The notes under the pieces are model-generated. The model made no database searches. It was given only the letters and a program-made list of their open reading frames with translations, and was not told where the DNA came from. From a virus, in IMG/VR virus record IMGVR_UViG_3300025018_000121, positions 27,094 through 91,093 of that record: a stretch of DNA of 64,000 bases. One strand, 5' to 3'. Positions 23,014-41,541 of this stretch are shown here, piece after piece (within the stretch, counting starts at the first letter, position 1; each line of letters starts with the position of its first letter). Position numbers and translations under genes: made by a program.

Positions 23014-23658
23014 ATGAAAGTTTTAAACGGCCCCGGTAATCCGATAACAGGCTCTACTTTAGCTTCGGACTTAGAAGATGAACAACTTCCGTTTGAAATT
23101 CTAGAAAGAATGAAAGAGATCGACGAAAACTTTGAGACACAAATCTTTGTTAAGAAAAGAAAGAAAGAGACAAAACAAATAAAAAAGAGTAATAAATTTC
23201 TGAATATTAAAGGAGAGTTGCCTTTCTGTATTCACTTACCAGAAAAAACTATTTCCATGTCTGGTAGCAAAAAAGAATGGGAGCAGCATAAAAAACAAGT
23301 ATCTAAGGAAATTGACGCAAAAACAACTGACATTATATCCGTAAATAAAAAATCTAAACATGCCTTTATCAATAAACTAGATCAGCACCAGAGAGACTTT
23401 GAAACTTTCTTTCTACATGAATTATCGCCCTTAGAGTCGGCGTTTGAACCTTCCTTAGATAACGTAAAACAAATACTAGAACTAATTACTAAATCAGAAG
23501 TAGACACTGGGGATTTGGGTACATTTAGAGCAATGCTGCGCGACGTTTTATATATTAAAGCTCTTGAATTCTTTGCAGATAAAGCTAATTTAAGTGAAAG
23601 TCAGCAGGCCATATTAAACGAGAAATACTTCAGGCCAAAGGAATTCAAAAAAGAGTAA
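23014..23658 (+). CDS. Hypothetical protein with MKVLN leader
   Basis: 214-aa ORF immediately upstream of terminase. Confidence 0.6.
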   Translation: MKVLNGPGNPITGSTLASDLEDEQLPFEILERMKEIDENFETQIFVKKRKKETKQIKKSNKFLNIKGELPFCIHLPEKTISMSGSKKEWEQHKKQVSKEIDAKTTDIISVNKKSKHAFINKLDQHQRDFETFFLHELSPLESAFEPSLDNVKQILELITKSEVDTGDLGTFRAMLRDVLYIKALEFFADKANLSESQQAILNEKYFRPKEFKKE

Positions 23659-23664
23659 AAGCGT

Positions 23665-26600
23665 ATGAAAACCTCAGATGTTAAATTTAGTAAAAGAAAA
23701 GCATTAGCAAAAGGAAAGAACTGTTTAAATTGTGCTTCCTTTTCCAAGTGCAGTAAAAGTAAAAAGTCAGGGTCTTATGTTTGCGAATCCTACAAGAAAA
23801 TAAAAGTAAAGGGAGAAAATGCTTTTTCTCTAGAGGATATGTTTGCTGATACTAATTTCCACGTAGCAGATGACTACTCAGACTTCGTTCCCATTGAAGA
23901 CGAACACGACTTTAAAAATATGGAAATTAATGTCGTTAAAATGATGGACGAAATCTTCGAGAGCGAAAATCCCTACCCCCGTGACTTAAAAATTGATGAT
24001 CGTGACTTACCGGAATTTAAAAATATTTATGAATACTTCTTTGACCCTGTTTATGGTCTAGCAAAAAATATGCAGCCTTTTTCTAGGCAGCTATGGGCTG
24101 GAGTAAAACTCTTTGGTGATTACTGCCCTATATGCTCAGACCACAAATTTATGGAGGACATTGAAAATTGCCCTATTTCTATGAGAGCAATTGATTTTCC
24201 AGAACATGTAGTATTTATGGAAAATGGAAAATGCCCTAAATGCAAAGGACATAAGTTAGACTTTGTTAAAAAAGGTTACATGAATTTTTATAGAGACTTT
24301 GCAGCTTGCTTAGGACAACGTTCCGGTAAGTCTGTGACTTTTTCTATGTTTAGTGGATATCATCACCACAAGTTTTTAAAAATGGGAAAGCCTGCTGAAT
24401 TATTAACAGGTCTGCCTAACGTAACTCTAACCGCAACATATACGGCAACAGATTTTAAAACTGCTATGGAAACCTTGTGGCAGCCTTTTGTAGATATTAT
24501 TGACGAATCGCCGTGGTTTAAAGCTTATCACTCTATGCTAGACCACTATGGTAAAAAATACGGCGAAGAAATTTATCGTTTTAAAGAAAGTTTCCTACAT
24601 TATAAACACACTAAAATGTTTACGTCGGCTGCTTCACCTAACAAAAGAACAATGCGTGGTCGTTGTTTAACAGGTGATACTCTTGTTAACACGTCACAAG
24701 GCACTATGCACTTTTCTGAATTTATTAAAGAAATGGACTACAATAAAACCGATCTACAGATTATGTCGCACCTTGGTGGGCGTACTGTAAGCCATACCTA
24801 CAAGTCAGAAGAAACAGAAACCTATAAATTAAGAACCCGAAATGGTTTTTCTGTAGAAGGTACTCCAGAGCATCCAATGCTTGTTTTAAATGAAGACCTT
24901 TCTATGGATTGGGTTACTTTAGATAAATTAAAAGTAGGGCAATGGATAGTATCAAAAACAAATAAAGAGAAAACCCTGTACGGAAATGCGAAGCTGTCTA
25001 AAACAGATGCTGAATTACTCGGATACTTTGTAGCTAACGGTTATAGGAATGAAGTTTCGACAAACGATCAAGACGTAGCCAACCGCTTAATTTATCTAGG
25101 TAAAAAGATAACTGGAGTAATTCCAACCCATACTAAAAATAATTCTTCTATTCGCGCAGACTCTTACAGGTTTATCTACAAAAACGGGGAGTCTAATTTC
25201 GTAAGAGACTACTTAAATCCTTTAGGGTATGACTTTAAAAATTCAAAAGATAAAATGATTCCTGCTATTGTCAGGATGGCCCCTAGAGAAGTTATGCACG
25301 AATTTTTGGAAGCTTATTTTAAATGTGATAGTGGTATTAATGGAGGCTCAAAAAATTCCCCTTCAGAAATAGAGGTGGGTTCCGCTAGTAAAAAACTGGC
25401 TAAACAACTACACGTTATTTTATTTAAAAACTACGGTATACTTGGAAGACTGACCAAGCACACTTTCTATGATAAACTGAACAAAACTACCGGAAACTTT
25501 AATGCAAAAAGAAACCATTGGACTATTACGATAACTGGTTACGACGCGAACCTATTTTTGCAGACTTTCAAGAAAGCAAAAGTTCAAAAATACAAAGATA
25601 GAATAAAAGACGTACCTAAAGGCTTTATGTCCGACAGAAGAAGTGTTCCTTATGTAAGAAAATTTCTTTGGGACTTATACGAAAACTCCCGACTGGTAGA
25701 TACATTAGGTAAAAGACTCAGAAGACTTATTGCAGAAAATGGCAGTGTAGTCTTAAACAATATCAAGCCCAAGTGTTTTGATAGGTTACGTTCTAGTAGA
25801 GATATTTACGAAGAAACGCCAGAATACTTAATTTACGGAGACGATTGGGATATTTTAATACCAAGAATTAAAGACCTTAATTTAAGCAAGGGTACTGCAC
25901 TTAAAGACTTTTTATCTTTTGAGGGGCACTTTGAACAAGTAGTTGAGATTAAAAAATCTTCTAAAAAGAAAACTGTATACGACGTTACCGTACCGGATGG
26001 CCATGCTTTTATTGCAAATTGTCTGGTTTCTCACAATACCCGTTTTGAATATGCAATCGACGAATTAGGCTGGTTTGATGCTTCAAGTGAATCAAAAGAT
26101 AAAGTACGTATTTCCGCAGATGAAATTTACGGCGCACTAGACCGTTCAATGAAAACAGTTATGTCTGCATCTAAAAGATTATTTCTACAAGGTTATAGTG
26201 GTACAACACCGGGAATGTCTTTTAATATTTCTTCGCCTTCTGCCTACGACGATAAAATTATGTCTATGTGCAGAATCCATAAAGACTCTAGAGTAGTTTT
26301 AGCGCTTCACTTACCCACTTGGAAATACAATCCTAAAGAGCCTAAAGAAAACTTCAGAAAAGAATACATGGAAGACCCTATAAAAGCTGAACGTGACTTT
26401 GGTGCTAATCCTCCTATGGCAGCCTCGCCATTCTTTGAAAACATTAACGCCATAGTTCCAAACTTCACAGACAAAGCAAATTTCGCAACTTACGAATATT
26501 CATTAAAGAAAGTAAATAACACACTTTATAAATCTGCTAAATTGAAGTTGAGTGTACGCGGCGATATTTACCCCTCAGTCCTCGCACTAGATGCTGGTTT

Positions 26601-27252
26601 TTCTAATAACTCTTTTGCTCTTGCTGTCGGCCACCGTAGAGAAAAAGAAACTATATTTACTACCCTTATTGAAATCATGCCAGATAAGGGTAAAAATGTT
26701 TTGAACTACAATTCTATCTTTGAAGAAGTAGTAGTCCCTTTAGTAGACTCATTAAATGTTCAATTTATTTGTGCTGACCGTTGGAACTCTTTATTCCTTT
26801 TACATAAATTAGAAGAAGATAAAAAAATAAAGCAAATGCAGTATAGCGTTAAATACGCAGACTTCAATTTATTTAAATCATACTCTGAGGGTAATAGAAT
26901 TCTATTTCCCAAAATGGAAATGCGAGCAGAAAAAGCATTAACTATTCCTAGCACAGAATACATAGAGAAGTTTACGTACAAACCCTGTGCCCATTTATTC
27001 TCTCAGATATTTACTGTTGAAGACAAAGGCCGCACTGTTGATAAAGGTAAAAACAGAACTGACGATTTATTTAGAGCTGTGGTATTAGCCTCTAGGTTCT
27101 TACTTGATGATTCATGGGTAGCTGAGAATCTTAATTTAACCAAAAGAAAAAACAGCAATATGGGAATCGTTGCACTGGCTAATGGTGCAAGCCCTACAGG
27201 CACTTTAGCTACGGCAACAGGTAAAGGAATTATTTCGTCAGGAGGTCATTAA
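23665..27252 (+). CDS. terL: Terminase large subunit containing an intein
   Basis: Walker A GQRSGKS, Walker B AIDE after the intein, ISSP, nuclease LALDAG, ADRWNS, TDDL; upstream of portal. Confidence 0.88.
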   Translation: MKTSDVKFSKRKALAKGKNCLNCASFSKCSKSKKSGSYVCESYKKIKVKGENAFSLEDMFADTNFHVADDYSDFVPIEDEHDFKNMEINVVKMMDEIFESENPYPRDLKIDDRDLPEFKNIYEYFFDPVYGLAKNMQPFSRQLWAGVKLFGDYCPICSDHKFMEDIENCPISMRAIDFPEHVVFMENGKCPKCKGHKLDFVKKGYMNFYRDFAACLGQRSGKSVTFSMFSGYHHHKFLKMGKPAELLTGLPNVTLTATYTATDFKTAMETLWQPFVDIIDESPWFKAYHSMLDHYGKKYGEEIYRFKESFLHYKHTKMFTSAASPNKRTMRGRCLTGDTLVNTSQGTMHFSEFIKEMDYNKTDLQIMSHLGGRTVSHTYKSEETETYKLRTRNGFSVEGTPEHPMLVLNEDLSMDWVTLDKLKVGQWIVSKTNKEKTLYGNAKLSKTDAELLGYFVANGYRNEVSTNDQDVANRLIYLGKKITGVIPTHTKNNSSIRADSYRFIYKNGESNFVRDYLNPLGYDFKNSKDKMIPAIVRMAPREVMHEFLEAYFKCDSGINGGSKNSPSEIEVGSASKKLAKQLHVILFKNYGILGRLTKHTFYDKLNKTTGNFNAKRNHWTITITGYDANLFLQTFKKAKVQKYKDRIKDVPKGFMSDRRSVPYVRKFLWDLYENSRLVDTLGKRLRRLIAENGSVVLNNIKPKCFDRLRSSRDIYEETPEYLIYGDDWDILIPRIKDLNLSKGTALKDFLSFEGHFEQVVEIKKSSKKKTVYDVTVPDGHAFIANCLVSHNTRFEYAIDELGWFDASSESKDKVRISADEIYGALDRSMKTVMSASKRLFLQGYSGTTPGMSFNISSPSAYDDKIMSMCRIHKDSRVVLALHLPTWKYNPKEPKENFRKEYMEDPIKAERDFGANPPMAASPFFENINAIVPNFTDKANFATYEYSLKKVNNTLYKSAKLKLSVRGDIYPSVLALDAGFSNNSFALAVGHRREKETIFTTLIEIMPDKGKNVLNYNSIFEEVVVPLVDSLNVQFICADRWNSLFLLHKLEEDKKIKQMQYSVKYADFNLFKSYSEGNRILFPKMEMRAEKALTIPSTEYIEKFTYKPCAHLFSQIFTVEDKGRTVDKGKNRTDDLFRAVVLASRFLLDDSWVAENLNLTKRKNSNMGIVALANGASPTGTLATATGKGIISSGGH
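24664..26037 (+). mobile_element. Intein (458 aa) with LAGLIDADG-type endonuclease domain
   Basis: MRGR|CLTGDT, GTPEHP block B, LLGYFVANG and FLEAYFKCDS, VYDVTV...SHN|T. Confidence 0.95.
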
Positions 27253-27287
27253 TAACTAATTTAATCCTATACAACAGGAGAGTTTTT

Positions 27288-27482
27288 ATGGAACGTATCA
27301 ACCCATTAAATGCAGAAGTTGCGTCAGAAAAAACTTCTGAAACAGCTAATCACAATTCAATTGATGACGTATCTATTTGTCCTGCTGACGGTTGTGGAAA
27401 GCCTATGCGAATTATGCGGGCTAATGGTCATAATTGTTTTGTTTGTTTGACTCACAGAATTGCACTGCCTTGCCCCGATTAA
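27288..27482 (+). CDS. Small Zn-ribbon protein with MERINPLN leader
   Basis: CPADGC...CLTHRIALP; AGGAG RBS; between terminase and portal. Confidence 0.7.
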   Translation: MERINPLNAEVASEKTSETANHNSIDDVSICPADGCGKPMRIMRANGHNCFVCLTHRIALPCPD

Positions 27483-27500
27483 TACCAAAAGGTAAATAAT

Positions 27501-29264
27501 ATGAAGCCGCTTAATAAAGTAGTGATTAAAGATAATCGAGTTGTATCTACTAAACTTGGTGGTAAAGGTACGAAAGTAGGCGCGTCCACAGAAGCAGGTA
27601 AAGAACAATTAGCATTTACCGGAACAGGTGGCGTACAAGGCGGAAGAAATTCTGTAAGCGTCTCGACAATTGGTACAGGCTCAGTAAAATATTTAGACAC
27701 TCTGTTGTCTGGTTTTATTGACGAAAGAAATGAAACGCAATTAAGAAATATATATCGTGACATTTATTATTATGACTCTGTATGTGGTGGGGCTGCTGAT
27801 ATGATAAGCACCCTGCCATTTTCTGATTTTTCCCTTAACGGTTTGGACGATAAAAAACTTGAAGTGTATCAACACGCAGTAGACCGTCTTAACTTAAAAA
27901 CACAGTTCCCTTCTTTTGCTTTAGGTTATTTAGTCGATGCAGAATATGCAGGTACTCTAGTTATGCAGGATAAATCCTTTACGGATATTCTGCCACACGA
28001 CATTCAAGACTGTAATATTGAGGACATGCCTTTCGTTTCACAAGACCCGTTAATTACAGTTTCTAAATCAGAAAAGCTTAAAAACTTTTTGGAGAGTGAA
28101 GCAGAAGTAATTAAGCGTCAGCGTAGAAACTATCCTGCAAAAATGCTGAAGGCACTAGAAGAAAATGAATTTGAACTTGACCCTTTGACAACAATTTATT
28201 TAGCACGTAAAGGAATTAATGGAAAACCAACTTCTTTCTTCAGGCGCGTACTTCCGTGGTACTTAATTGAGAAAACTCTTTTGCGGGGTACTATTGTAGA
28301 AGCTTCTAAACGTCAGCGCTCTGCATTGCATGTTGCTGCTGGCGGTGATATGTGGGAGCCAACACCTGAAGAATTATCTGCTATCGTTGCGCTTTTTCAA
28401 CAAGCAGACTTTGATCCTTTAGGCCCAACTATCGCCACAAGAAATGATATTCAGATAAATGAAATTCGCCAAGGCGGAGACTTCTGGAAAATTACAGATG
28501 TTATTGATACTACTAACCAATTAAAAATGAGAGCACTAGGAATTAGTGAAGCCTTTTTAAGTGGTGACGTTACTTACAACACTTCAGAAGCTGCATTGTC
28601 TGTATTCATTGAGAATATCCGTACTTTCCGTGACTACATGACACAACAAACTTTCTATCGTAAAATGTTCCCGCTTATTGCACATTTAAATGGATTCACA
28701 AAAAAGAAATCAGAAACTGCACAAACTCTTTCTTTTAGAATTAATGACACTACATCGTATGATATTCCACAAGTACGTTGGCATAAATCTCTGCACCCGC
28801 ACTCTGATAGAGACACTATGGAAATTCTTAATCAAATGGCAGACAAAGGAATTCCCGTTACTTTAAGAATGTGGGCGGCTGCCGGCGGTATTGATTTAGA
28901 TAGTGTTATTAATGAATTAGATCAGGACAAAAAAATTCGTGCCAGAATAAAAGAAAAGACTGCTGACATGGACAATGACGGCATGAATGATAATGCTGAA
29001 ATTGGCGAAGACAATTTTTCTTTTGCTAAACTCGCTCCTATTAGACGTATTGGTATGTTTGGTAGAGACTACGGCGAAGCTGCTGAAATTACAGGCACTA
29101 CTGTTACAGGTAAAAAGAAATACATATACAATCAAAAAGCTGCTAACGAAAAAGCTAACTGGCATATTGTTCAAGCCTTGTCTGCATTAAACGACCCTAG
29201 TCATTACATAGACACCAAAAAGAAAATTCAGAGTCGCTTAGGTAGAAGCAGGCGCGTGAGGTAA
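27501..29264 (+). CDS. Portal protein (probable)
   Basis: 587 aa after terminase; ALGISEAFLSG..YN..S motif typical of large-myovirus portals. Confidence 0.7.
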   Translation: MKPLNKVVIKDNRVVSTKLGGKGTKVGASTEAGKEQLAFTGTGGVQGGRNSVSVSTIGTGSVKYLDTLLSGFIDERNETQLRNIYRDIYYYDSVCGGAADMISTLPFSDFSLNGLDDKKLEVYQHAVDRLNLKTQFPSFALGYLVDAEYAGTLVMQDKSFTDILPHDIQDCNIEDMPFVSQDPLITVSKSEKLKNFLESEAEVIKRQRRNYPAKMLKALEENEFELDPLTTIYLARKGINGKPTSFFRRVLPWYLIEKTLLRGTIVEASKRQRSALHVAAGGDMWEPTPEELSAIVALFQQADFDPLGPTIATRNDIQINEIRQGGDFWKITDVIDTTNQLKMRALGISEAFLSGDVTYNTSEAALSVFIENIRTFRDYMTQQTFYRKMFPLIAHLNGFTKKKSETAQTLSFRINDTTSYDIPQVRWHKSLHPHSDRDTMEILNQMADKGIPVTLRMWAAAGGIDLDSVINELDQDKKIRARIKEKTADMDNDGMNDNAEIGEDNFSFAKLAPIRRIGMFGRDYGEAAEITGTTVTGKKKYIYNQKAANEKANWHIVQALSALNDPSHYIDTKKKIQSRLGRSRRVR

Positions 29265-29266
29265 TT

Positions 29267-30277: not shown

Positions 30278-30287
30278 GGATTTATTT

Positions 30288-31064
30288 ATGCGTCAGGATT
30301 TTCAAGACTTGAGTTTAAGAGAGGCTGTCTACGCTGACGCCTTTATGGAAGGTAAAGCAATTGATATTCACAAAGAGGTACGTTCTAAGAATATTCAAAT
30401 TGCTACTAATGATATGGTTTTAAATAAAAGTTCCAACGTTCTTACAACAGAAGCAGAGCAGAAATTGGATATTACTAACTGGCTCCCTTTTGCTTCTAAA
30501 AAATATTTAATCAGCCCTGATATTAACGATTATATTTTTGTTCCTGTTTTGACTATCCCGTCTGACTTACCTAACAGAAATGGCGTAGCGTTTCCGTTGA
30601 AAACTCTATTGGAATTTAATGTTGATGCAGGCTGCCAAGGCTATAAAACTTTTAGAGGCAAGCCTGTACATTACGAACATCAAAATAAAGACCCGACGAA
30701 AGCAAAAGGTGTTATCGTTGATTCTTTTTTACGCCGTATTAATGGTTTTGGTGGTGGTAACGTCTGGAAGGTAATGTTGTTGCTTGCTATTGATAGAACA
30801 AAAGACGTTTCTCTTTCTAGTCAGATTATTAGTGGTGAAATGAACTCTTATTCAATGGGAGCTTACGTAGATAAATATACTTGTTCTTATTGTGGCTCCG
30901 ATGTTGGAAAATGCACTCACATTAAAGCAAATAGCCCTGTTAATTTTTACGAACTTAATGGCGACCTTGTATTTAAAAATATGCACGGCATGATGGGTTT
31001 TGAGTGTTCGTCTGTAGGCACGCCCGCTTGGAGTCCTGCTGCGAGTAATACTGTTTATATGTGA
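30288..31064 (+). CDS. Prohead maturation protease (probable)
   Basis: NRNGVAF, HYEH, SMG, CSYC..CTH, FECSSVGTPA. Confidence 0.75.
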   Translation: MRQDFQDLSLREAVYADAFMEGKAIDIHKEVRSKNIQIATNDMVLNKSSNVLTTEAEQKLDITNWLPFASKKYLISPDINDYIFVPVLTIPSDLPNRNGVAFPLKTLLEFNVDAGCQGYKTFRGKPVHYEHQNKDPTKAKGVIVDSFLRRINGFGGGNVWKVMLLLAIDRTKDVSLSSQIISGEMNSYSMGAYVDKYTCSYCGSDVGKCTHIKANSPVNFYELNGDLVFKNMHGMMGFECSSVGTPAWSPAASNTVYM

Positions 31065-31071
31065 GGCATTT

Positions 31072-32385
31072 ATGAAAGTTTTAAATGCAGAGCTTGCAGG
31101 TCTGTCTGATATTATTTTTCACGGTACAGACATAGATAAAGCATTTGCTATATTAAAACAGAACAAATTTATTCTAGCCTTTTCAAAAACAGGTTCTGCT
31201 GAAGACAGTCTTAATCCAAACCCTAAATTTCACTTTTATCTTTCTACTGCACGTTCAAAATTAAGTCACTACATTAGAACAAATAGCCCTGAAGCTATTT
31301 TTGTACTAGACGGTAGAAAGCTAGGTCAAAAATATAAAGGTGGGCCAATTAACTACTGGAAAGGTTTTTCTGAAAAAGAGCAAAAAGAAAAAGAGAAAGA
31401 AGATAGGGTTTACACAAAAGACTCTTATATCCCTAATGCCTACACCTATATAAAAGAATTGCAGGTTTCAGTAGACAGGCTAAACGATTACCGTAAAAAA
31501 TATTTACTTGGCCTATTAAAACTTGCTAAAAAGCACAACGTAAAAGTAGTTGGGTTTAAAACTTTCAAAGGTATGTTGATAAATAGTAGAACGGAAAGGC
31601 TAACAGAAGACGAATTGTTTGCTGCTGTTTCAGACGTTAAAGGAAAGCCCGATAGCCCTTATAGCTACACAAAGCCAGAAGATATAAGCATTTTTGTTTA
31701 CGCTTACGAACGGATGGAAGAAGCTATTAAAAAGAATCAAGATTTCTATAAGCTACTGGCTTCAAAGAATTATGCTAGATCAAAGTACGCTAAGAAATAT
31801 AAAGTTTACGACTTGCTACAACATGTTTTTCCACACAATCATCATGATTTTATTAGCACCCTAAGTATGTACATTGGAAACTCTAGACGAAACATGTCGC
31901 CAGAATTAAACGATGCCGTACAGTCTTTAAGTCGTTTAATGCGTAGACTAAAAGTAAATGACTTGGCTAATCTCTTTATAAAGTTTCGAGACTTATATTC
32001 AGAGTATAACACTCAGTCTTCTGTAAGATCAAAGCAACGATCCTTATTGTCTGCTAAAAAAGTAGCGCGTACTAAAGGATTATTGTATTCCGAAGTGACT
32101 CTAAAAGATGATGACCTTATTATAGTTCACGGAGCTAGAATAAAAAATAGGATAACTAAGAAAGACCTGTTAGACGTTGCTATGCACTTAACAAACAGTT
32201 TGCTTAATATTTTTTGGGGAATGAAAAGAATTGAAATAAAACTAAGCAAGCCTATAACGAAAAGCCAATTGTCTGTACTAGAAGAACTTGGATTTTCAGG
32301 CGATGGCCGAGAATATCTTTATATCAGTTACTACTCGTACAACAGAATTGATTTGGAATCTGTAAATTCAACAGAACTCGCGTAA
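31072..32385 (+). CDS. ADP-ribosyltransferase-fold protein with MKVLN leader
   Basis: FHGT, YLSTARS, LDG.KL...YK..PINYW, EKEDR. Confidence 0.55.
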   Translation: MKVLNAELAGLSDIIFHGTDIDKAFAILKQNKFILAFSKTGSAEDSLNPNPKFHFYLSTARSKLSHYIRTNSPEAIFVLDGRKLGQKYKGGPINYWKGFSEKEQKEKEKEDRVYTKDSYIPNAYTYIKELQVSVDRLNDYRKKYLLGLLKLAKKHNVKVVGFKTFKGMLINSRTERLTEDELFAAVSDVKGKPDSPYSYTKPEDISIFVYAYERMEEAIKKNQDFYKLLASKNYARSKYAKKYKVYDLLQHVFPHNHHDFISTLSMYIGNSRRNMSPELNDAVQSLSRLMRRLKVNDLANLFIKFRDLYSEYNTQSSVRSKQRSLLSAKKVARTKGLLYSEVTLKDDDLIIVHGARIKNRITKKDLLDVAMHLTNSLLNIFWGMKRIEIKLSKPITKSQLSVLEELGFSGDGREYLYISYYSYNRIDLESVNSTELA

Positions 32386-32396
32386 GAGGGTGAGCT

Positions 32397-33017
32397 ATGA
32401 CAGGTACGTACATAGAAGCTAAATTTAAACCAGTTTGTGTAGAAAAAATCTACGCCGTTGCTAATCGAGCAGCGGCTTTATTGCAGTGTACTCCTATTGA
32501 AAAAGAACAAATTCACTGCACCGTTTTATATTCAGAAATACCTAAAGAACCAAGGAAAGGCGAGTTTAAAGTAAATTGGAAAGTATCTACTAAAAAATAT
32601 GATTTATTCGGCCCCGAAAAAGATTGTCTTGTTATTCTTTTAAATTGCCCTGAATTAGTTAGGTTAAACTCAATGTGTATGTCAGCAGGTGCAACCTCTA
32701 CATACGCTCAATACTGTCCGCATATTACTTTGGCTTATGGCACGGACGCTGAGTTATTTAATTACCACAGCAAGCAGTTAAACAAAATGTTAGAATCATT
32801 ATCTTGTTTAACTATAGACTCTATACACGTAAAGCCCTTAGTAAGAGACTGGAAAATAACGGTTGAATCAAAATACATGGACAAAGACCTCTGTTGGAAA
32901 AACTACACAATGGTCGGACTAAAGAAAGACAAGAAAGGAAACTTAGTTCCTAATTGTGTACCAAAAGAGGATGTAAAAGAAAAAATCGAAAGCAGACTGT
33001 TGAGAGTAAGTCTGTAA
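32397..33017 (+). CDS. 2H phosphoesterase, Acb1/T4 gp57B-like, with C-terminal CWxxY..NCVP peptide
   Basis: GTYIEAKF, IHCTVLYS, PHITLAY (two HxT motifs). Confidence 0.75.
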   Translation: MTGTYIEAKFKPVCVEKIYAVANRAAALLQCTPIEKEQIHCTVLYSEIPKEPRKGEFKVNWKVSTKKYDLFGPEKDCLVILLNCPELVRLNSMCMSAGATSTYAQYCPHITLAYGTDAELFNYHSKQLNKMLESLSCLTIDSIHVKPLVRDWKITVESKYMDKDLCWKNYTMVGLKKDKKGNLVPNCVPKEDVKEKIESRLLRVSL

Positions 33018-33065
33018 AGTAAGCGACCTACAAAGGTGTACATAATATCGTTCAAGGAACTTAAA

Positions 33066-33515
33066 ATGCTTCTGTACAATTCTCCCCAGATGCGCAATTT
33101 TGTTAAAAAGAAAGGAGCCATTGGAACTATCCAAATGCCAATAAAAACCTTTCTGAAATTAACTTCCAATACAAGACTTCCTAGAATTAAAAAAGAGGCT
33201 ATGTCAGTAGGTGAATATAATGCACTGGCACTGCAAGGAAAGATAAATACTATGCCTTTTATTCGCATTTTACCTAACGGGAAAGTAAAAGGTCACGAAG
33301 GCAGACACCGTTCATGGTCTTTGTATCGTGAAGGTGAGCGCTACATTGAAGTGGCAATTATTGTTACTAAGCCAGATACAGAAAAAGGAAAAGGAAAGAA
33401 TAAAACTTACGAAACACTACCTAAATTTAAATCGAGAGACTTGCCTACTATTTGGGAAGGCCAGTTTTCAGAAGTTAAGTTACCTGTAAAACTTCAAACA
33501 TTTAAAAGGATGTGA
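33066..33515 (+). CDS. ParB/sulfiredoxin-like domain protein
   Basis: MPFI...VKGHEGRHR; paralogue of 37887..38462; AAGGA RBS before ATG 33066. Confidence 0.55.
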   Translation: MLLYNSPQMRNFVKKKGAIGTIQMPIKTFLKLTSNTRLPRIKKEAMSVGEYNALALQGKINTMPFIRILPNGKVKGHEGRHRSWSLYREGERYIEVAIIVTKPDTEKGKGKNKTYETLPKFKSRDLPTIWEGQFSEVKLPVKLQTFKRM

Positions 33516-33775
33516 ACATGGAAAAAATATTGATGGGCCGTGACAATCCAGACGGACATAAGTTAGAAGAACTACTAAAAAGATTGCAGGAAGAAATTGA
33601 GTCAAAGTCTCGTTTACTGACTGAGAACTCTGATTTAACTAAAATGATTATTGAGTCTAACGATAAAATAGTAAAGCTCCTTTATGAAGCTGAACAAATT
33701 CAAATAAATACTATGAAAGAAATAGAAAAACAGAGAGGCCCTAACAGAGGGCCGTCGAATCCGCGAGTTAGCTGA
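33512..33775 (+). CDS. Small coiled-coil hypothetical protein
   Basis: LMGRDNPDGHKLEELL followed by a heptad pattern. Confidence 0.6.
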   Translation: MNMEKILMGRDNPDGHKLEELLKRLQEEIESKSRLLTENSDLTKMIIESNDKIVKLLYEAEQIQINTMKEIEKQRGPNRGPSNPRVS

Positions 33776-33782
33776 GGGCGGT

Positions 33783-35660
33783 ATGAAAGTGCTTAATGAA
33801 GAAAAAGCAAGCTCACAGCAGATTAAAGCACTCGAAGCTAAAATTAAACGAGCTTCGGACATTTATTATAATACTGGCAAAATAATCATGCCAGATAAAG
33901 AATTCGACAAACTTGTTGAAGAATTAAAAGTACTAAGCCCAAAATCAAAAGTCTTGCAGCAGATAGGCGCACCTGTTAAAAGACAAAAAGTTAAGCTGAT
34001 GTATTTCATGGGAAGCCTTGACAAAATTAAGGCGGAAAATGCAGATACATGGTTGCAGAATAAAAGACCTAAGAATGGATATTGCGTCTCAGATAAAATT
34101 GATGGTGTTTCTATTTTAATTGTTTACACACCTAAAGAAATAAAAGCATTTACACGCGGGGATGGCACTTACGGACAAGACATTTCCTTTTTAGTACCTC
34201 ACTTGGGTATCCCAACATTAAAAACTAATCTGGTATTGCGAGCCGAAATCGTAATGCCTGTTTCGCGTTTTGAAACGTGGAAAAAAGATTTTGAGAATCC
34301 AAGAAATCTAGTATCAGGTATTGTTAATCGTAAATCTATCCACAGGGCTACCAGAGACTTAGACGTAATTGTTTACGAACAAATATCTCCAAGAATTGCA
34401 CAAAGCCAAGCACTAGAAAAATTAAAAGGTGTTGGCTTTAAAGTTGTACCCTTCAAAATATTTAAAGACCTTAATTCAAGTCTGTTATCTGAACTATTGA
34501 AATCAAGAAAACAGAAATCTAAATACGAAATTGATGGTCTTGTTGTTACTGTTAATGATAGCAACCCCGTTAATACAATGGGAAATCCAAGCTGGGCGAA
34601 AGCCTTTAAAGAAGTTGGCGAAGGTGCTGTACAGGAAGCCGAAGTTGTTGACGTTCATTGGGAAATATCCAAGCGTGGTTTATTGAAGCCTAGAGTAGAA
34701 ATTAAACCACTACGTTTAAGCGGTGTAACCGTTAAGTTTGCTACAGGCTTTAATGCAAAGTTTATCGAAGACAATAAAATTGGCCCCGGTGCGAAAATAA
34801 AAATCGTTAGGTCAGGTGACGTAATTCCGCACATAATGGAGGTTGTAAAGCCGGCTAAAACTGCACGTCTCCCTACTGATAAAGAATTCCGGTATATGTG
34901 GAATAAAACCGGGGTAGACATTGTTGCTATTGACAAGAAAAGCCATAAGTCTTATCAAGTAAAACGCTTGAATCATTTCTTCAAAACATTAGGCGTAGAA
35001 AATTTCAGTATTGGTTTAATCGAACGCTTTTTGTTAGACGGTCTTGATTCAATCGGAAAGATTACCAAAGCATCTAAGAAAAGACTGCTACAAGTAAATG
35101 GTATTCAAGAAAAATCAGCAGAAAAGATTTATTCCAATATTCAGACGGCAATTAAAAACGTACCTTTGGATAAACTAATGGATGCTTCTGGTTTGTTTGA
35201 AAATATGGCCCAGAAGAAAATCAAAAAAGTGTTGGATAAATATCCTAAAATTTTAGACTCTTTTTCCAAAGTGCCTACTCAGACTTTAGTAGATAAATTA
35301 AAACAAGTAGAGGGTTTTAGCGATGTGTCAGCAAAGGAGTTCGCTAAAGGTCTTCCGAAGTTTGTTGCCTTCGTAAATAAATATCCTAATATCACTTACG
35401 TTGTACCCAAAGAAAAGAAAACGCAAATAAAAGGAAAACTCGCTGGAAAAAGTTTTGTGTTTACAGGTTTTAGAGATAGACACTTGGAGTCTACACTTGA
35501 ATCCAAAGGCGGTAAAATAGGAGCGGGTGTAACTAAAACCACAACAATTCTTATCGTTAAAGATAAGTCAGCAGGTTCTACTAAGATACAAAAAGCAGAA
35601 GCTCTAGGCGTGAAAGTAATGGACGCTAATGAATTTCGACGTTGGCTTGATAAACAATAG
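33783..35660 (+). CDS. ligA: NAD-dependent DNA ligase with MKVLN leader
   Basis: YYN, MGSLDK, KIDG, TRGDG, NPRN, EIDGLV, RSGDVIP, HhH repeats, C-terminal BRCT; no Cys4 Zn finger. Confidence 0.95.
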   Translation: MKVLNEEKASSQQIKALEAKIKRASDIYYNTGKIIMPDKEFDKLVEELKVLSPKSKVLQQIGAPVKRQKVKLMYFMGSLDKIKAENADTWLQNKRPKNGYCVSDKIDGVSILIVYTPKEIKAFTRGDGTYGQDISFLVPHLGIPTLKTNLVLRAEIVMPVSRFETWKKDFENPRNLVSGIVNRKSIHRATRDLDVIVYEQISPRIAQSQALEKLKGVGFKVVPFKIFKDLNSSLLSELLKSRKQKSKYEIDGLVVTVNDSNPVNTMGNPSWAKAFKEVGEGAVQEAEVVDVHWEISKRGLLKPRVEIKPLRLSGVTVKFATGFNAKFIEDNKIGPGAKIKIVRSGDVIPHIMEVVKPAKTARLPTDKEFRYMWNKTGVDIVAIDKKSHKSYQVKRLNHFFKTLGVENFSIGLIERFLLDGLDSIGKITKASKKRLLQVNGIQEKSAEKIYSNIQTAIKNVPLDKLMDASGLFENMAQKKIKKVLDKYPKILDSFSKVPTQTLVDKLKQVEGFSDVSAKEFAKGLPKFVAFVNKYPNITYVVPKEKKTQIKGKLAGKSFVFTGFRDRHLESTLESKGGKIGAGVTKTTTILIVKDKSAGSTKIQKAEALGVKVMDANEFRRWLDKQ

Positions 35661-35695
35661 GAGTCTGCAATGAACAGTACTGAAACTATCTAACC

Positions 35696-35727
35696 AAAAG
35701 CGGGGGCCTTTAAAGCTCCCGTTTTTT
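35696..35727 (+). terminator. Rho-independent terminator
   Basis: GCGGGGGC-CTTTAAA-GCTCCCGT followed by a T run. Confidence 0.75.
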
Positions 35728-35782
35728 ATTTGCGTCCTAAAAAGGCTAATTTTATTGTATCAACCTAATAGAGATTTGGGAC

Positions 35783-37876
35783 ATGAATTCGTACTCTATT
35801 AATTCAATTTTGGCGAAAATGGCTACACACCTTTGGGGTGAAAATTGCCGTTATCCAGTATATACAGAACAAGGTTTATTTAAATGGCAGAATCCAGATA
35901 ATGCTTTTCGTTTTGTCGCTGACAACATTGAAAAGTGTTCGGACTCTGCCCAAATTATTTTATTTGGCTCTGGTTTTGTTGAACAGCAGAGTGCAAACGA
36001 ATGTGTATTGCATTCTTTTATTTTAGATAACCAAAAGATTATTGATTTATACGAAGACAAAATTGCCGTTTATTGTAACGATGGCTACAAACTTGCTAAC
36101 GTTCCTATTGGACAAGAAATATTTCGAGTATCTGTTAGTGAATTTAAAGACCTGTTTAAATCAAATGCCGAACATACAGAAGTAGAAGTTGCTTTTTCAG
36201 ATCAGAACTACGAAGCAGAAGCACTGGCATTTATTTACTGCGCTTATGTTATTTTTAAATACGTTATGACTCAGAACCCAAAAGAAATTACTAAGGAATC
36301 CATCGTAGGTTTATCTGAGAACGCACCAATTGCCCAAAAGTTTTTAACTAAGTACAAAGTAGGGTATCGTTTATTTAGCAAATTACTCTCTTTAATAGTT
36401 GCCAAAAAAGAATACAACGATCAGGTAGAAAATCTTGTATTGCGTTTTGGCAAAGACTTAAAAGGTGCAGTTCCTTTGTGGACTAAAAATAATAAGATTG
36501 GAAAAGACGCTCTAACTGCAATGAAAGCCTTTGGTACTTACTTGAGAAAACGCGATAGCAATAATGCAAAGAATTGGTTATTGGCTAACGTAAACAAGAT
36601 GCAGAGCAGAACTCTTGTACAGTTATTCTCTGACGCTAAATATCTTGGATTAAAGAATGACAAGGTTGGTGTTGACGTAAAAGGCAGTCAACAAGAATTA
36701 TTAAAGAAGATTAAAGCAGTGACTAAAAAATTAATTGGTAGTCCTGTTGAAGGTCTATCAATTGAACAAGCTAAGAAGGCAAGAGATAAAGACCCAGAGA
36801 CTTACAAAATATATTTAGAGTTACGACGCGCATTAGTACAATCATCCTCAGCTTTTCTTAGACTAAAAGTACGTCAGTCCGGAAAGCAACTTGTGCCTTA
36901 TGACAAAACAATCGAAGAAATGAATGCTGAAGGAATTAAGCACAATTACCCTGAAGGGTTTAAAGGTTACTTAGACGAAGATGGTTTTCTTTACACCACT
37001 GCAAAAAAGAAAATATCGAACAAGCCCGCAAGCCGCGTTAGCATGAATCCTAATTATGACGCAAATAAAGATGACACTTATGTATTTACAATAGTGTCTC
37101 CTACAGATAAAACAAAAGTCCTTTATTTTAGAACAGATGATTTTGCAAAGAAGCGTACAGCATTAAAATCTGAAAAAGTCTCTGAGCTAGGTGCGAGGCT
37201 GAAAACAATTCGTAATAAGTGGACGGGAAAAATTGGATACAAGAAAAGAGAAAACCTTGTTGCTTCTATTCTGGAATTAATTTATTTATTTGCTGCGCGT
37301 GTAGGTAAGACAGGTAACATGACAGGTGGTGAGCCTACTTTTGGTATGTCTACAATTCTGGTTAAGCACGTTAAGAAGCAAGGCAAGAATTATATATTTG
37401 CGTATCCCGGTAAAAAAGGAACAATTCAAAACTACACACTCACTCCCAAGCATCCTACCTATGCAAAACTTGCTGAAGTATTAGATCACCAAATGCAGGG
37501 AAAGAAGCCTACTGATTCTATCTGGACTTACAAGGGTGTATTTATTCCAAAGTCTGCAATTGATTCTTTCTGGAAAAGTTTAGACTCTGCTACAGCCAAT
37601 GTCGGCGTACACAAAATCCGAAATGCTGAAGCAACTAAAATGGCAAAAGATATTTTATCTAAACATCCCTTTAAGAGCGGTGTTACTAGTCAGGCACAAG
37701 TAGAAAAATGGTACAAAGACGAAATGAAAAAAGTAGGTCAAGCACTGCAACACCAAACCGGCGGAAATGTAACTAGCACTACTGCTATTAAAAGTTACAT
37801 TGACGCAGAGCTGCAAAAAGAATTCTTTTTAAGTTTAGGTTTGCGTGTGCCGTCTTTTGTACCACAGTCGAATTGA
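35783..37876 (+). CDS. Type IB DNA topoisomerase with long N-terminal extension
   Basis: Catalytic set RVG, GKKG, HKIR, LQH, AIKSYID. Confidence 0.8.
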   Translation: MNSYSINSILAKMATHLWGENCRYPVYTEQGLFKWQNPDNAFRFVADNIEKCSDSAQIILFGSGFVEQQSANECVLHSFILDNQKIIDLYEDKIAVYCNDGYKLANVPIGQEIFRVSVSEFKDLFKSNAEHTEVEVAFSDQNYEAEALAFIYCAYVIFKYVMTQNPKEITKESIVGLSENAPIAQKFLTKYKVGYRLFSKLLSLIVAKKEYNDQVENLVLRFGKDLKGAVPLWTKNNKIGKDALTAMKAFGTYLRKRDSNNAKNWLLANVNKMQSRTLVQLFSDAKYLGLKNDKVGVDVKGSQQELLKKIKAVTKKLIGSPVEGLSIEQAKKARDKDPETYKIYLELRRALVQSSSAFLRLKVRQSGKQLVPYDKTIEEMNAEGIKHNYPEGFKGYLDEDGFLYTTAKKKISNKPASRVSMNPNYDANKDDTYVFTIVSPTDKTKVLYFRTDDFAKKRTALKSEKVSELGARLKTIRNKWTGKIGYKKRENLVASILELIYLFAARVGKTGNMTGGEPTFGMSTILVKHVKKQGKNYIFAYPGKKGTIQNYTLTPKHPTYAKLAEVLDHQMQGKKPTDSIWTYKGVFIPKSAIDSFWKSLDSATANVGVHKIRNAEATKMAKDILSKHPFKSGVTSQAQVEKWYKDEMKKVGQALQHQTGGNVTSTTAIKSYIDAELQKEFFLSLGLRVPSFVPQSN

Positions 37877-37886
37877 TAGGTGAACT

Positions 37887-38462
37887 ATGAAACTTATTCA
37901 GACAGCTAGACACTATGACCTTCCAATTTCAAACGTACAAAAAAGAAATGCTATAGGAAATAAGTGCATTGGTTATATCACAATGCACCCTATGGATTTC
38001 TTGGAATTAACTACTACAAATAAAGAAGGCGTAGAGAGAATAATGAATGATTCTCAGCCTTTAGAAGTTTATTTGAAAAGTATTCGTAATCGTTCAAACC
38101 TTGTTATGCCTTTTCTCGGAATCGAAGTTGCGAAAGGAAAACTAGGTAAGGCTAAACGTGGTGAAGTCGTAGGTCACGAAGGTAGGCACAGAGCGGCAGC
38201 GCTTTTAAAGTCTGGAAAAACAAGACTACCTGTAGCCGTGCGCGTGCGCGAGGAAGGTAGAGAATGGAAATACTACGCCGAGCGTTATGTACCTAACGAA
38301 GGCCGTGAAAAAGTTTTTATGAACGCCTCTATTATTCCTGAAGTCTGGACAGGACAATTTAATTCTTCAATATCAAAAAACATGTCAAATGCTTTAAAAA
38401 CATTTGAATCTTTTTATTCAAGTTCCGCAACTAAAGATATTCAAGACGTGAGGGACTGGTAA
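37887..38462 (+). CDS. ParB/sulfiredoxin-like domain protein
   Basis: MPFL...VVGHEGRHRAAAL. Confidence 0.55.
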   Translation: MKLIQTARHYDLPISNVQKRNAIGNKCIGYITMHPMDFLELTTTNKEGVERIMNDSQPLEVYLKSIRNRSNLVMPFLGIEVAKGKLGKAKRGEVVGHEGRHRAAALLKSGKTRLPVAVRVREEGREWKYYAERYVPNEGREKVFMNASIIPEVWTGQFNSSISKNMSNALKTFESFYSSSATKDIQDVRDW

Positions 38463-39214
38463 TGAAAATCTTATCTAGCTTCGACCCTGAGCAATTAAAA
38501 ATAGGAACAGATGTAGAACTAGAACATACTAGTGACAGAAAAATTGCAGAGAAAATTGCTAAAGATCATTTGAAAGAATGTCCTAACTATTACACCCGTC
38601 TTTTGAAAATGGAAAAAGAATGTGATTCTGAGAAAGCCAGCGTACCAGATAATGACTACGTTTTCTTCGATACAGAGTTTTATGAGAACGGCGAAGTAAT
38701 TATTCCTATTTCAATTGGTATGGTAAAAGGTCTTGAAGGTAACGAACACTTGTATTTAGTCAACGCAGACTTTGACTATGATTGGATGGTAGCCGACGCG
38801 AAAAGCAGAGGCTCTGAAGAAACAATAGAATTCCTAGACAAAAATGTATTCAATAATATTTGCGCCACGTCTGAAAATACTTTTAGCATGTCGATCATCA
38901 AAGACATTATGACGCAGTTTTTACCGAAGGTTCCTTGTCTCTGGGCTTCTACTGCTTCTTACGACTGGATTCTTTTATGTCAAATGTTTGGTCGCATGGT
39001 AGATAAGCCAAAAGAGTATCCTTATTTTCCTATGGACACTGCACAACTTAAAAAGATGTTTCCACAAGTCACTGTTGATTATTCTTGTATGCCTGACAAT
39101 TCTATAACATTAGGTTGCGAACACAACGCATTGTTTGATGCTTACGAAACACGTTGTAAATACCTGAGTTATAGAAAATTCGTTACTGAAAATAAGTTAC
39201 CGATTAGTCTGTGA
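38462..39214 (+). CDS. DEDD 3'-5' exoribonuclease (Rv2179c-like) fused to a small N-terminal DUF5661-like domain
   Basis: FFDTEF, ISIGMV, SYDWILLCQMFG, HNALFDA; N-domain QLKIG..VELEHT...IAKDHLKE.PNYYT.L. Confidence 0.75.
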   Translation: MKILSSFDPEQLKIGTDVELEHTSDRKIAEKIAKDHLKECPNYYTRLLKMEKECDSEKASVPDNDYVFFDTEFYENGEVIIPISIGMVKGLEGNEHLYLVNADFDYDWMVADAKSRGSEETIEFLDKNVFNNICATSENTFSMSIIKDIMTQFLPKVPCLWASTASYDWILLCQMFGRMVDKPKEYPYFPMDTAQLKKMFPQVTVDYSCMPDNSITLGCEHNALFDAYETRCKYLSYRKFVTENKLPISL

Positions 39215-39221
39215 GGCTAGT

Positions 39222-39731
39222 ATGAAAGTTTTAGAGTTCTCTTCTACTTATTTATTTCATAGTACAAACAAAGAATATTCCCCCGGAGATTTGTTACAGT
39301 GGAAGGGAGCAAAAACAAAAGGTACTTTTGGGGATTATGAAAAGCTAATAGAGAAAAATCGACCTGCCTCTGCTCACAGTAGGCTGTCTTCGTTTTATAC
39401 AGCTAAAACAAAAAGAGAGTCTGAAATATTTGATGTTGGTATGTACACTTATAAGGTATTACCTGTAGGAAAAATTACGCCTTGCGCTCTTGGCTGGTTC
39501 AGTTTACTAATGGTTTATGTTAAACCGGAAGGCTATAGAAAAAACTACGGATATATAGTAAACGTAAACAAAGCAATGAAAGACCCTAAAGTTACGGAGC
39601 TGTGCAAAAATTATTGGAAAGGTATTGTTCCTACCAAAAAACAATTTGACGAATTTGATCGTGACATGGACGTGGAATCAAAAGTAATTGAAGTATTGTG
39701 CTCAAAAATAAAAATCGTAAAAGAGGTCTAA
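39222..39731 (+). CDS. ADP-ribosyltransferase-like protein (Arr-like) with MKVLE leader
   Basis: LFHST....PGD, RP....SRL, YKVLP.G, YWKG, terminal EVL. Confidence 0.5.
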   Translation: MKVLEFSSTYLFHSTNKEYSPGDLLQWKGAKTKGTFGDYEKLIEKNRPASAHSRLSSFYTAKTKRESEIFDVGMYTYKVLPVGKITPCALGWFSLLMVYVKPEGYRKNYGYIVNVNKAMKDPKVTELCKNYWKGIVPTKKQFDEFDRDMDVESKVIEVLCSKIKIVKEV

Positions 39732-39732
39732 G

Positions 39733-41541
39733 ATGCCTACTCCAGTTTTAGATGCAATGGCTAAAAAATATAACGTACCTTTGAAAAAAGTTGAATACTA
39801 TTGGGACTCTGGGAAAAAGCAGGCAGAAGAACAAGGTCTTCAAGGAGACGCCGTTTACAAGTATGCAATGGCAATTGTGAAACGCAGACTCGGCGTTAAA
39901 GAAGAAAAAGCAAACGATATTGTTCACGAAAAAGTTAAAGAGGTGCTGAACGATTTTATTAAGATCAAAGACCGTATCCTAAGCGACAACTCTGCTAAAC
40001 AAGCAATCACCATTAATTTAGCAGAAGAAATCGCTCAGTGGATTTCTATACTATCTCCTAAAGCAATACTAGATGAACTAGATAATCTGAAGCCTAACTT
40101 ACAAAAAGACGACCTGAAAGTGTTTGCTTTTTTTCAAGAATGTGTCAGTACGAAGTTTTCAAAAAAATACAAAGATAATTCTTTCTATCTAGTCTTCAAG
40201 TATAACTATTTACCTGACGTAATAGAGTCTGAACTCCGTTCAAAAGAAGACGCTCCGGGTTTATTCGTTAGGTATTTGTTAATCAATAACAAGGCTGCCT
40301 TCTTAATAAAGGACACGAAAATTAAAATACCTGAATACATTTTCGATACATTTGCTACCTACGTACTCCAATTTACAGAGTCGGCTGTTGATCTTTTGAT
40401 TTCTAAAAGACTCCCGGCTACTGAAAATATAGTTAATCGTGTTCTTACTAATTACCTTTCTAATAGGTTTAACTATCCACCAGAGTCTATATATACTATT
40501 TTCGATTTTTACAAACGCTTTAATGTAAAACCCAATAAAGAATTTTTTAATACCCTGACTTCTCTTTTAAGTAAAGAGAGATCTCCTGTTGATATACCTG
40601 ACAGCTTTCAAATACATGTGTTGTCTTTAAACCCCAGTTTGGCTAGAAAGATTTCTAATCTATCAGACGCATCACGAAAGTTTGTTGAAACCAAAATTGA
40701 GTGGAAAGAAAAGAAATATCTACCGAAGCACCTAGATGCAGACCAGCTCGCGGTTATTCGTTATATGGACTTAATGAAGATAGACGAAGTTTCTGTAAAA
40801 GATTTAAAGTCTAAGTTTTCTTTTACTCCTACTATAAAAGACCTTATCAATCTTAAAAGCGGAAAAAATTTATCAAGACAAGACGTAATGGACTTCATTC
40901 CGGCTGGAGAAAAAATTACGTTAACGGAACTATTAAAAAATTCGGTAATGCAAAAGTCCGCAAGATGGACTGGAATGCAGCAAATATTCAATTCCTCTGG
41001 CAATAAACAAAATCTAGTCGTAGTTATGGCTTGCAATATAGACGATCTATTAAAAGTGCTGGATATAAATAGTAATTTCCAAAAAGAATCTGTATTAGAA
41101 GGTATAAATCGTTACATGACATTATCGAATCACCCCAGATCGCCCACTAGACTTCTAGTTTTAGGTTGGGTGCGTTATACAGTTTTTGGAAAAATAGTTT
41201 GGATTGATGAAGTTCAAAGCGACTTGTACAAAGTGCTTGGTGATCTATCTAAGGACTTAAAAGGGCTTACAGAATATATAGCAAAAGAATTCATTCGTAC
41301 AATGCGTAGTAAAGGATTTGGTAAATTCGACTACCCTACTATGCAAATAAAAACTTCTCTATACGGAGCTAATCCACCTGCATCTATGTATGAAGACTTA
41401 CCGCGAAAACTAAGATTTAAAAAGAAGGAAGGTAGCACTTTGCCAGACTCTATTACAGAGAAAGAAGACAGATTAACTAAATATCAAGTTTGGGAACTAG
41501 CGGGCATTAAAGTTTTGGAGAAAGACAATGGCGATGAATAA
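39733..41541 (+). CDS. Large multidomain hypothetical protein, probably virion-associated
   Basis: Small N-terminal helical module; C-terminal H...LGWVR...WIDEVQSD motif. Confidence 0.55.
   Translation: MPTPVLDAMAKKYNVPLKKVEYYWDSGKKQAEEQGLQGDAVYKYAMAIVKRRLGVKEEKANDIVHEKVKEVLNDFIKIKDRILSDNSAKQAITINLAEEIAQWISILSPKAILDELDNLKPNLQKDDLKVFAFFQECVSTKFSKKYKDNSFYLVFKYNYLPDVIESELRSKEDAPGLFVRYLLINNKAAFLIKDTKIKIPEYIFDTFATYVLQFTESAVDLLISKRLPATENIVNRVLTNYLSNRFNYPPESIYTIFDFYKRFNVKPNKEFFNTLTSLLSKERSPVDIPDSFQIHVLSLNPSLARKISNLSDASRKFVETKIEWKEKKYLPKHLDADQLAVIRYMDLMKIDEVSVKDLKSKFSFTPTIKDLINLKSGKNLSRQDVMDFIPAGEKITLTELLKNSVMQKSARWTGMQQIFNSSGNKQNLVVVMACNIDDLLKVLDINSNFQKESVLEGINRYMTLSNHPRSPTRLLVLGWVRYTVFGKIVWIDEVQSDLYKVLGDLSKDLKGLTEYIAKEFIRTMRSKGFGKFDYPTMQIKTSLYGANPPASMYEDLPRKLRFKKKEGSTLPDSITEKEDRLTKYQVWELAGIKVLEKDNGDE

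Follow-up and report, generated by a model that had tools for sequence, protein, structure and literature searches.

A Shared N-Terminal Peptide on a Giant Helicase and a Portal-Adjacent Zinc-Ribbon Protein of a Jumbo Phage: A Candidate Capsid-Incorporation Signal

In phage T4, the internal proteins IPI-III and Alt carry a short N-terminal capsid-targeting sequence (CTS), 10-20 residues long (PMC5694885), that is removed by the protease gp21; all characterized T4 gp21-type proteases cut after Glu (PMC5694885). In phage P1, DarB is a giant (~250 kDa) helicase-containing protein that travels in the capsid, and its first 30 residues suffice to load a reporter into capsids (PMC9024508). In the jumbo phages phiKZ, 201phi2-1, and SPN3US, many head and ejection proteins have N-terminal propeptides that are cut by the prohead protease, and some paralogs among them have identical first 15 residues (PMC5694885). 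For the polyvalent proteins of phages and conjugative elements (Iyer et al., 2017, as cited in PMC7824862), injection is only predicted. In this work, we analyzed a window of 64,000 nucleotides (bases 27094-91093 of a 91,093-bp viral contig, IMG/VR record IMGVR_UViG_3300025018_000121), in which a sequence-only reading had proposed that many enzymes of the region 23014-41541 share an M-K-V-L-N-type leader and E/Q-x-A sites that would load them into the capsid. Proteins are named below by the first position of their gene in the window. All ten N-termini and the internal strings that had been quoted are present where they had been placed. As judged by sequence comparison, the overall finding is real but narrow, namely, one convincing shared peptide that joins a 1999-aa helicase (4782) and a 64-aa protein encoded next to the portal gene (27288).

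The peptide common to the helicase and the 64-aa protein

The 4782 helicase and the 27288 small protein are alike over their first 13-14 residues and are otherwise unrelated. After Met, 8 of 11 residues are identical, and this pair stands at the top of 5778 protein pairs; the score of the N-terminal local alignment is 51, compared with 20.5 ± 4.2 for shuffles (z = 7.3). Eight of the ten identical residues are encoded by different codons, which argues against a recent DNA repeat and for selection on the peptide. These results support in part the existence of a short N-terminal peptide that would be under protein-level selection and common to at least two unrelated proteins.

In the 64-aa protein, the N-terminus reads M-E-R-I-N-P-L-N-A-E-V-A-S, followed by S-E-T-A-N and then by a Cys-rich zinc ribbon. 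In the helicase, approximately the first 31 residues are a lineage-specific add-on that resembles the N-terminus of the 64-aa protein, and the conserved part begins with R-V-R-P-N. The corresponding [LV]-R-P-[TN] motif of helicase orthologs follows the start by 2 residues in BcepSauron, by 13 in RSL1, by 17 in G001 (a 114-kb contig of the IMG/VR relative L010), and by 31 in this phage. A search with the first 400 residues of the helicase found no homologs. A gene of 64-87 aa is conserved between the genes for the large terminase (TerL) and the portal (window 27288-27482; L010:9782-9976; L011:5068-5283; L003:801-1025), and its products combine an R-I-x-P / N-P-L motif at the N-terminus with an E-T-A motif and a zinc ribbon at the C-terminus. 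Both R-I-x-P and E-T-A are kept at the N-terminus of orthologs from IMG/VR, metagenomes, JA11, and GR11A; the JA11 ortholog is mis-annotated as DNA ligase. The sequence evidence supports the view that the helicase reproduces, in its first 14-30 residues, the peptide conserved at the N-terminus of the 64-aa protein, and that selection on the peptide keeps both copies.

The portal, the capsid protein, and the giant helicase each retrieve the same ~95 phages at 25-47% identity, including Vibrio GR11A, Ralstonia RSL1, Pseudomonas PaBG and Lu11, Dickeya JA11, Erwinia Alexandra/Y3-type phages, and Burkholderia BcepSauron. By this placement, the phage is a jumbo myophage of the PaBG/RSL1/Lu11/JA11 clade (subgroup 2.2 of PMC7824862). 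Megablast against phages found no closer relative, and portal scans of IMG/VR and metagenomes returned relatives at only 36-48% identity. The CheckV completeness of the contig is 37%, which implies a genome of ~245 kb. In addition to G001, the relatives compared include G002, a complete genome of 249 kb with 324 open reading frames (ORFs).

Possible capsid loading and cleavage

The link of the helicase to the virion comes from PaBG. The PaBG ortholog, gp202, is band 1 of the purified PaBG virion at 221,162 Da (PMC7412058, its Table 1). It has 1969 aa and a calculated mass of 221,159 Da, and the gene order of helicase, lysozyme-like protein, and DNA polymerase matches that of the phage analyzed here. 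The earlier interpretation as capsid targeting is thus retained for a selected peptide on two proteins, one of which has a virion ortholog in PaBG, and is dropped for the enzyme block as bearers.

PaBG virion proteins are proteolytically processed, and the capsid protein of PaBG loses ~20% of its mass. Among seven aligned capsid proteins, we found an invariant Ala (A64 in this phage) with a Glu 2 or 3 residues upstream, at 18-22% of the length, which agrees with the 20% mass loss in PaBG; this conserved site is probably where the capsid protein is trimmed. Here, the capsid site is K-E-V-L-A-S; the helicase leader has K-E-V-T-A-S, and that of the small protein has A-E-V-A-S. A scan of the proteome for E-V-x(0,1)-A-S gave only four matches, namely, in the capsid protein, at the C-terminus of the sheath, and in the two leaders. 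The tail sheath (L001:9109-11271, upstream of the window) ends with A-E-V-A-A-S-G-V. Of the proposed E/Q-x-A tag sites, the E-V-x(0,1)-A-S of the two leaders resembles the probable trim site of the capsid protein, and the generic E-x-A-[SGN] occurs at chance frequency (27 found, 21 expected; minus-strand genes included). The capsid-protein alignment is compatible with a cut after the Ala or after the Glu 2-3 residues earlier.

The head maturation protease is presumed to be the reader of any cleavable leader, and it may trim the shared peptide at a K/A-E-V-(x)-A-S site like that of the capsid protein. Group 2 jumbo phages have a gp21 ortholog (PMC7824862). The protease of this phage had no Pfam match, including to PF03420, and a PDB sequence search returned no hits; an hhalign comparison with T4 gp21 gave a non-significant E of 0.09, with a plausible His...N-x-D-P motif. 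Its AlphaFold2 (AF2) model is poor, with a predicted local distance difference test (pLDDT) score of 44. The capsid gene is preceded by a gene (L001:3678-5159, upstream of the window) for a 493-aa protein that has zinc ribbons, a strongly acidic central part, and, at the C-terminus, a conserved helical domain. This protein is probably the scaffold; in PaBG and PHROGs, it is annotated as an ATPase. Protease sites within it were considered and rejected, since its E-x-A-S sites are not conserved in homologs.

Our preferred reading is that the peptide common to the helicase and the small protein may be a capsid-incorporation signal of the T4 and P1 DarB kind, to which we assign a probability of roughly 40%. 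Several observations weigh against it. The N-termini of the helicase and the small protein are dissimilar in G001, G002, GR11A, and JA11 (z ≤ 1.5), so the tag is not a feature of the clade. Among non-paralogs of the complete G002 genome, we found no shared leaders. The order of DnaB, a small gene, TerL, the small protein, and portal is kept across the clade, including JA11 and Afa-NA1, where this set is surrounded by genes for ordinary enzymes of replication and nucleotide metabolism that have no start in common; adjacency to the portal gene is thus no evidence of cargo. A tag conserved across the clade was rejected on these grounds. Moreover, the N-terminal region of the capsid protein is rich in Ala and Glu, such that E-x-x-A there could be compositional, and this phage is known from sequence alone, with the virion evidence coming from the PaBG ortholog.

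A different role for the same peptide would be that of a binding epitope for a partner outside the prohead, such as the terminase or packaging motor, a chaperone or unfoldase adaptor, or a host factor, with both proteins recruited to one site and neither being cargo. The small gene is located between TerL and portal throughout the clade; the 214-aa protein (23014) upstream of TerL also starts with M-K-V-L-N and is N-P-rich, as in the L014 and G001 orthologs; and cleavage of the peptide is putative only. Nevertheless, the helicase ortholog is physically present in PaBG virions, which speaks more for capsid incorporation than for a role confined to the cytoplasm, and we consider the epitope rather improbable.

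If the capsid-loading signal is true, it would provide the first sequence rule for predicting packaged, injected proteins in the PaBG/RSL1/Lu11 clade, together with a candidate cleavage motif for the uncharacterized head protease of the clade. It would also describe a DarB-like counter-defense helicase hitching onto the address of a conserved head-assembly protein, and, like the signals of T4 and P1, could be used as a small tag with which foreign proteins are loaded.

The M-K-V-L-N starts and the remaining leaders

Exact M-K-V-L-N opens three non-homologous proteins (23014, 31072, and 33783; column-shuffle p ~2e-4). Between genomes, the first five residues agree at a rate of ~3e-5 per pair; at this rate, no more than 0.18 pairs are expected, compared with three seen. 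The longer pattern L-N-x-E-x(1,2)-A-[SG] was found four times in 28,755 residues (4782, 27288, 31072, and 33783), always within the first 15 residues; since this pattern was derived from those same four N-termini, the informative part is solely that it is absent elsewhere. Any reader of the peptide on the helicase and the small protein may also recognize M-K-V-L-N on the 214-aa protein, the DarT/Tpt1-like protein, and the ligase. The proposal of a common leader on unrelated proteins accordingly stands for 4782 and 27288, stands weakly for the M-K-V-L-N trio, and fails for 38462, 37887, and the portal, which have native starts.

Each member of the trio has features that speak against a common address. 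The 23014 protein has an N-terminus longer than those of its orthologs, by ~19 residues relative to G001 and ~13 relative to L014, with an N-P-rich start that is likewise found in both orthologs. By its position, it is possibly the small terminase, which is a non-virion protein. The ligase (33783) has ~8 residues ahead of domain Ia, and related phage ligases bear other extensions; the RHEph12 ligase has a similar K-V-V...IK-x-LEA stretch in an internal position, and the K-V-[VL] at the ligase start may be lineage sequence. For 31072, which starts with M-K-V-L-N-A-E-L-A-G, only the first five or six residues lie outside the conserved domain. The residue before the conserved G-L-S is Glu in 48 and Ala in 26 of 102 stand-alone copies, and Glu in 12 and Ala in 8 of 27 embedded copies. 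The same split in both kinds of copies indicates that E-L-A-G is domain sequence, and the claim that it is a tag site was discarded. We consider the resemblance among these three proteins a weaker signal that is probably, at least in part, native family sequence.

The 31072 family has 2743 representatives, which are either stand-alone proteins of ~300 aa or embedded within proteins of 1200-2566 aa, where Pfam recognizes ART-PolyVal, GNAT, and NUDIX. The protein itself had no Pfam match. In the AF2 model, residues 11-200 have pLDDT > 90 and residues 1-13 are coil. The top Foldseek matches are Tpt1/KptA and DarT, with a probability of ~1 but an E of only 2e-3 and target-normalized TM-scores of 0.46-0.64, and the ESM Atlas pointed to a DarT/PARP cluster. 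H17, T19, S58, R61, E108, E110, and R112 are invariant in 74 sequences of the family. The N-terminal ~200 residues are thus predicted from the model to be like the DarT/Tpt1 ADP-ribosyltransferase fold.

Other listed leaders can be accounted for individually. In 38462, the DUF5661 match begins at residue 6, directly after M-K-I-L-S. The portal protein has no N-terminal extension relative to its orthologs, such that M-K-P-L-N-K is its native start. The 37887 protein is a paralog of 33036, whose start differs; the two (33036-33515 and 37887-38462) have 28% identity over 149 aa (E = 2e-11) and no family match, and both have a G-H-E-G-R-H-R-type motif that is ParB/sulfiredoxin-like in appearance. 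For 39222, the start matches a regular expression for the N-terminus of the 31072 family, so this case may not be independent; on this pattern match only, 39222 could be a truncated or diverged paralog of 31072. A demonstrable paralogy of 31072 and 39222 was rejected because the hhalign profile comparison was not significant and only the N-terminal pattern agrees. The homolog search with 39222 found no homologs; an identical protein is carried on a 134-kb contig.

Similar sites had also been proposed to mark domain joints. This proposal rests on chance-level matches, given the E-x-A-[SGN] count reported above; the sub-motif E-K-A-[SN] was found 6 times compared with 1.36 expected, a marginal and post hoc excess. 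On these comparisons, the remaining listed leaders and the E-x-A joints are coincidence. In the 602-aa protein, the first ~55 residues (39733-39900; M-P-T-P-x-L ... E-Y-Y-W) form a module, with the E-E-K-A-N string at its exact end. The same module occurs as free-standing genes of 60-64 aa beside the protease in GR11A and L006 and as the N-terminus of a 159-aa protein in G001.

Two further candidates from relatives were examined and rejected. The M-K/R-x-L starts on the Acb1-like proteins of G001, L014, L006, and Voja-6 look like orthologous N-terminal extensions and not portable tags (orthologs compared: L010:13520-14068, L014:13225-13773, and L068:249-815); the Acb1-like 2H phosphoesterase of this phage (32397-33017) does not have the 14-21-residue extension of those orthologs. 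In G001, six Lys-rich coiled-coil proteins (L032:5407-10016), located between the neck genes and the giant helicase, are alike only in a 46-residue N-terminal module that ends with W-L-K-D-H-P-x-S-K-F. This is a genuine shared module, but it is different from the peptide described here, and the six proteins are candidates for internal head proteins of G001. Proteins with a related W-W-E motif adjoin the portal in L009 and L007/L008.

The resemblances may have no common function at all. Native family N-termini, a preference for Met-Lys-hydrophobic starts, A/T-rich early codons in a genome of 36% G+C, and one old fusion of the 5' end of the small gene onto the helicase gene would then account for them. 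Such an explanation agrees with the N-terminus of the 31072 family being intrinsic to the domain, with the possible lineage origin of the ligase K-V-[VL], with the native starts of 38462, portal, and 37887, with E-x-A sites at chance frequency, with the identical 12 nucleotides at three M-K-V-L starts, and with relatives that lack any tag. It has difficulty with three non-homologous proteins having the same first five residues, given the pair count and the shuffle test above. Furthermore, the identity between the helicase and the small protein outlasts saturated synonymous change, which a neutral relic would not. We regard this explanation as somewhat unlikely.

The nucleotides could instead be what is conserved. 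An RNA signal over the start codon (A-U-G-A-A-A-G-U-U-U-U-A), acting as a translational operator or initiation element, would co-regulate a few genes. T4 RegA co-regulates its target genes via translational operators. The exact 12-mer is present three times in the window, each at a gene start, where ~0.05 occurrences are expected by a composition estimate, and 31072 and 39222 also have an upstream T-G-T-G-A-G-G-C in common at identical spacing. Against this, the codons differ in the ligase and the two R-I-N-P-L-N genes although the peptide is retained, and the upstream regions are otherwise unrelated. A RegA-type operator was rejected because searches of this contig and of one complete relative gave no RegA homolog. 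We consider an RNA signal very unlikely.

At its widest, the capsid-incorporation signal would be an address of the form M-[KED]-x-[LI]-N followed by E-x-(x)-A-[SG]. The machinery of head assembly would recognize it and load the helicase, the zinc-ribbon protein, the DarT/Tpt1-like protein, and the ligase for co-injection, and the protease would clip it at a capsid-protein-like site, possibly after Ala. If true, the clade would gain its first defined capsid-targeting tag and its first cleavage rule, but we find such a multi-enzyme address improbable. The broader proposal that the whole block at 23014-41541 is a packaged toolkit finds no support: the neighborhood in JA11 and Afa-NA1 consists of ordinary replication and metabolism genes, most leaders are native, and the relatives have no co-varying tag. 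The block is a replication and counter-defense gene region with no demonstrated cargo set. As it stands, the set of leaders mainly shows that native Met-Lys-hydrophobic N-termini are easily over-read as a tag.

Gene map and comparison with known systems

The features of the window are listed below; the capsid, scaffold-like, and tail genes are located upstream of it. The membership of the 4198 protein in any tag set is uncertain. The terminase gene contains an intein with a LAGLIDADG domain that spans approximately residues 348-791, and the terminases of relatives have 735-760 aa and no intein.

Table 1. Positions of the features discussed, numbered from the first base of the window.
Feature	Position	Strand	Remarks
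190-aa protein	4198..4770	+	Starts M-K-R-L-N-Q; V-A-E-V-A-T at residues 30-35; directly upstream of helicase
1999-aa SNF2-type helicase	4782..10781	+	Pfam SNF2-rel_dom and Helicase_C; PHROG DNA helicase
DNA polymerase	start 11578
DnaB	start 21700
214-aa protein between DnaB and TerL	23014..23658	+	Starts M-K-V-L-N-G; no family match
Large terminase (TerL) with intein	23665..27252	+	LAGLIDADG domain in intein
64-aa zinc-ribbon protein between terminase and portal	27288..27482	+
Portal protein	27501..29264	+	PHROG portal, 4e-154; starts M-K-P-L-N-K
336-aa protein, no assigned product	start 29267
Head maturation protease	30288..31064	+	PHROG 18299, 2e-76
437-aa protein, predicted N-terminal DarT/Tpt1-like ADP-ribosyltransferase-fold domain	31072..32385	+
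Acb1-like 2H phosphoesterase	32397-33017
Paralog of 37887	33036-33515
NAD-dependent DNA ligase	33783..35660	+	Pfam and PHROG; starts M-K-V-L-N-E-E-K-A-S
697-aa protein	start 35783		Weak integrase/topoisomerase IB-type match
Paralog of 33036	37887-38462
DUF5661 domain and DEDD-type exonuclease	38462..39214	+	Starts M-K-I-L-S; S-E-K-A-S in inter-domain linker
169-aa orphan	39222..39731	+	Starts M-K-V-L-E-F-S-S-T-Y-L-F-H-S-T
602-aa protein	start 39733
SprT-like protein	start 41528
Lipase-like protein	start 42649

Among the known systems, polyvalent proteins resemble this locus in that the 31072-type domain recurs inside proteins of 1200-2566 aa beside ART-PolyVal, GNAT, and NUDIX domains. They differ in that the domains here are encoded by separate genes, and we saw no MuF-type portal-binding module. 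The SprT-like zincin, the lipase-like protein, the exonuclease, and the 2H phosphoesterase of the block presumably overlap with the polyvalent-protein repertoire. The propeptides of phiKZ, 201phi2-1, and SPN3US are mostly >100 residues and are cut at (S/A/G)-x-E, whereas the phage here belongs to another jumbo clade, subgroup 2.2 (PMC7824862), in which no cleavage sites are mapped.

The likeness to the T4 CTS lies in a short N-terminal peptide on otherwise unrelated proteins; it is strong for 4782/27288 and weak for 23014/31072/33783, and 38462, 37887, and the portal do not carry the same peptide. In addition, the T4 bearer Alt is an ADP-ribosyltransferase and 31072 is predicted to have an ADP-ribosyltransferase fold, and this phage encodes a head maturation protease. 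In contrast, T4 leaders end with L/I-x-E and their cleavage is mapped, whereas the motif here ends with A-S/G and its cut site is putative. Only two bearers are convincing here, both known from their sequences, and neither PF03420 nor hhalign placed the protease in the gp21 family.

P1 DarB provides the closest parallel for the helicase. As with DarB, a giant helicase of the 228-kDa class has a distinct N-terminal add-on (~31 residues), and its PaBG ortholog is found in virions. The helicase here is of the SNF2 type and has no methyltransferase domain in Pfam/PHROG searches, and the DarA, Hdf, and Ddr partners were not identified in this phage. From its domains, the helicase would be at most DarB-like in its working and is no member of the DarB family. 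In P1, there is no consensus among the Dar N-termini (PMC9024508), whereas the putative signal here is common to a second protein.

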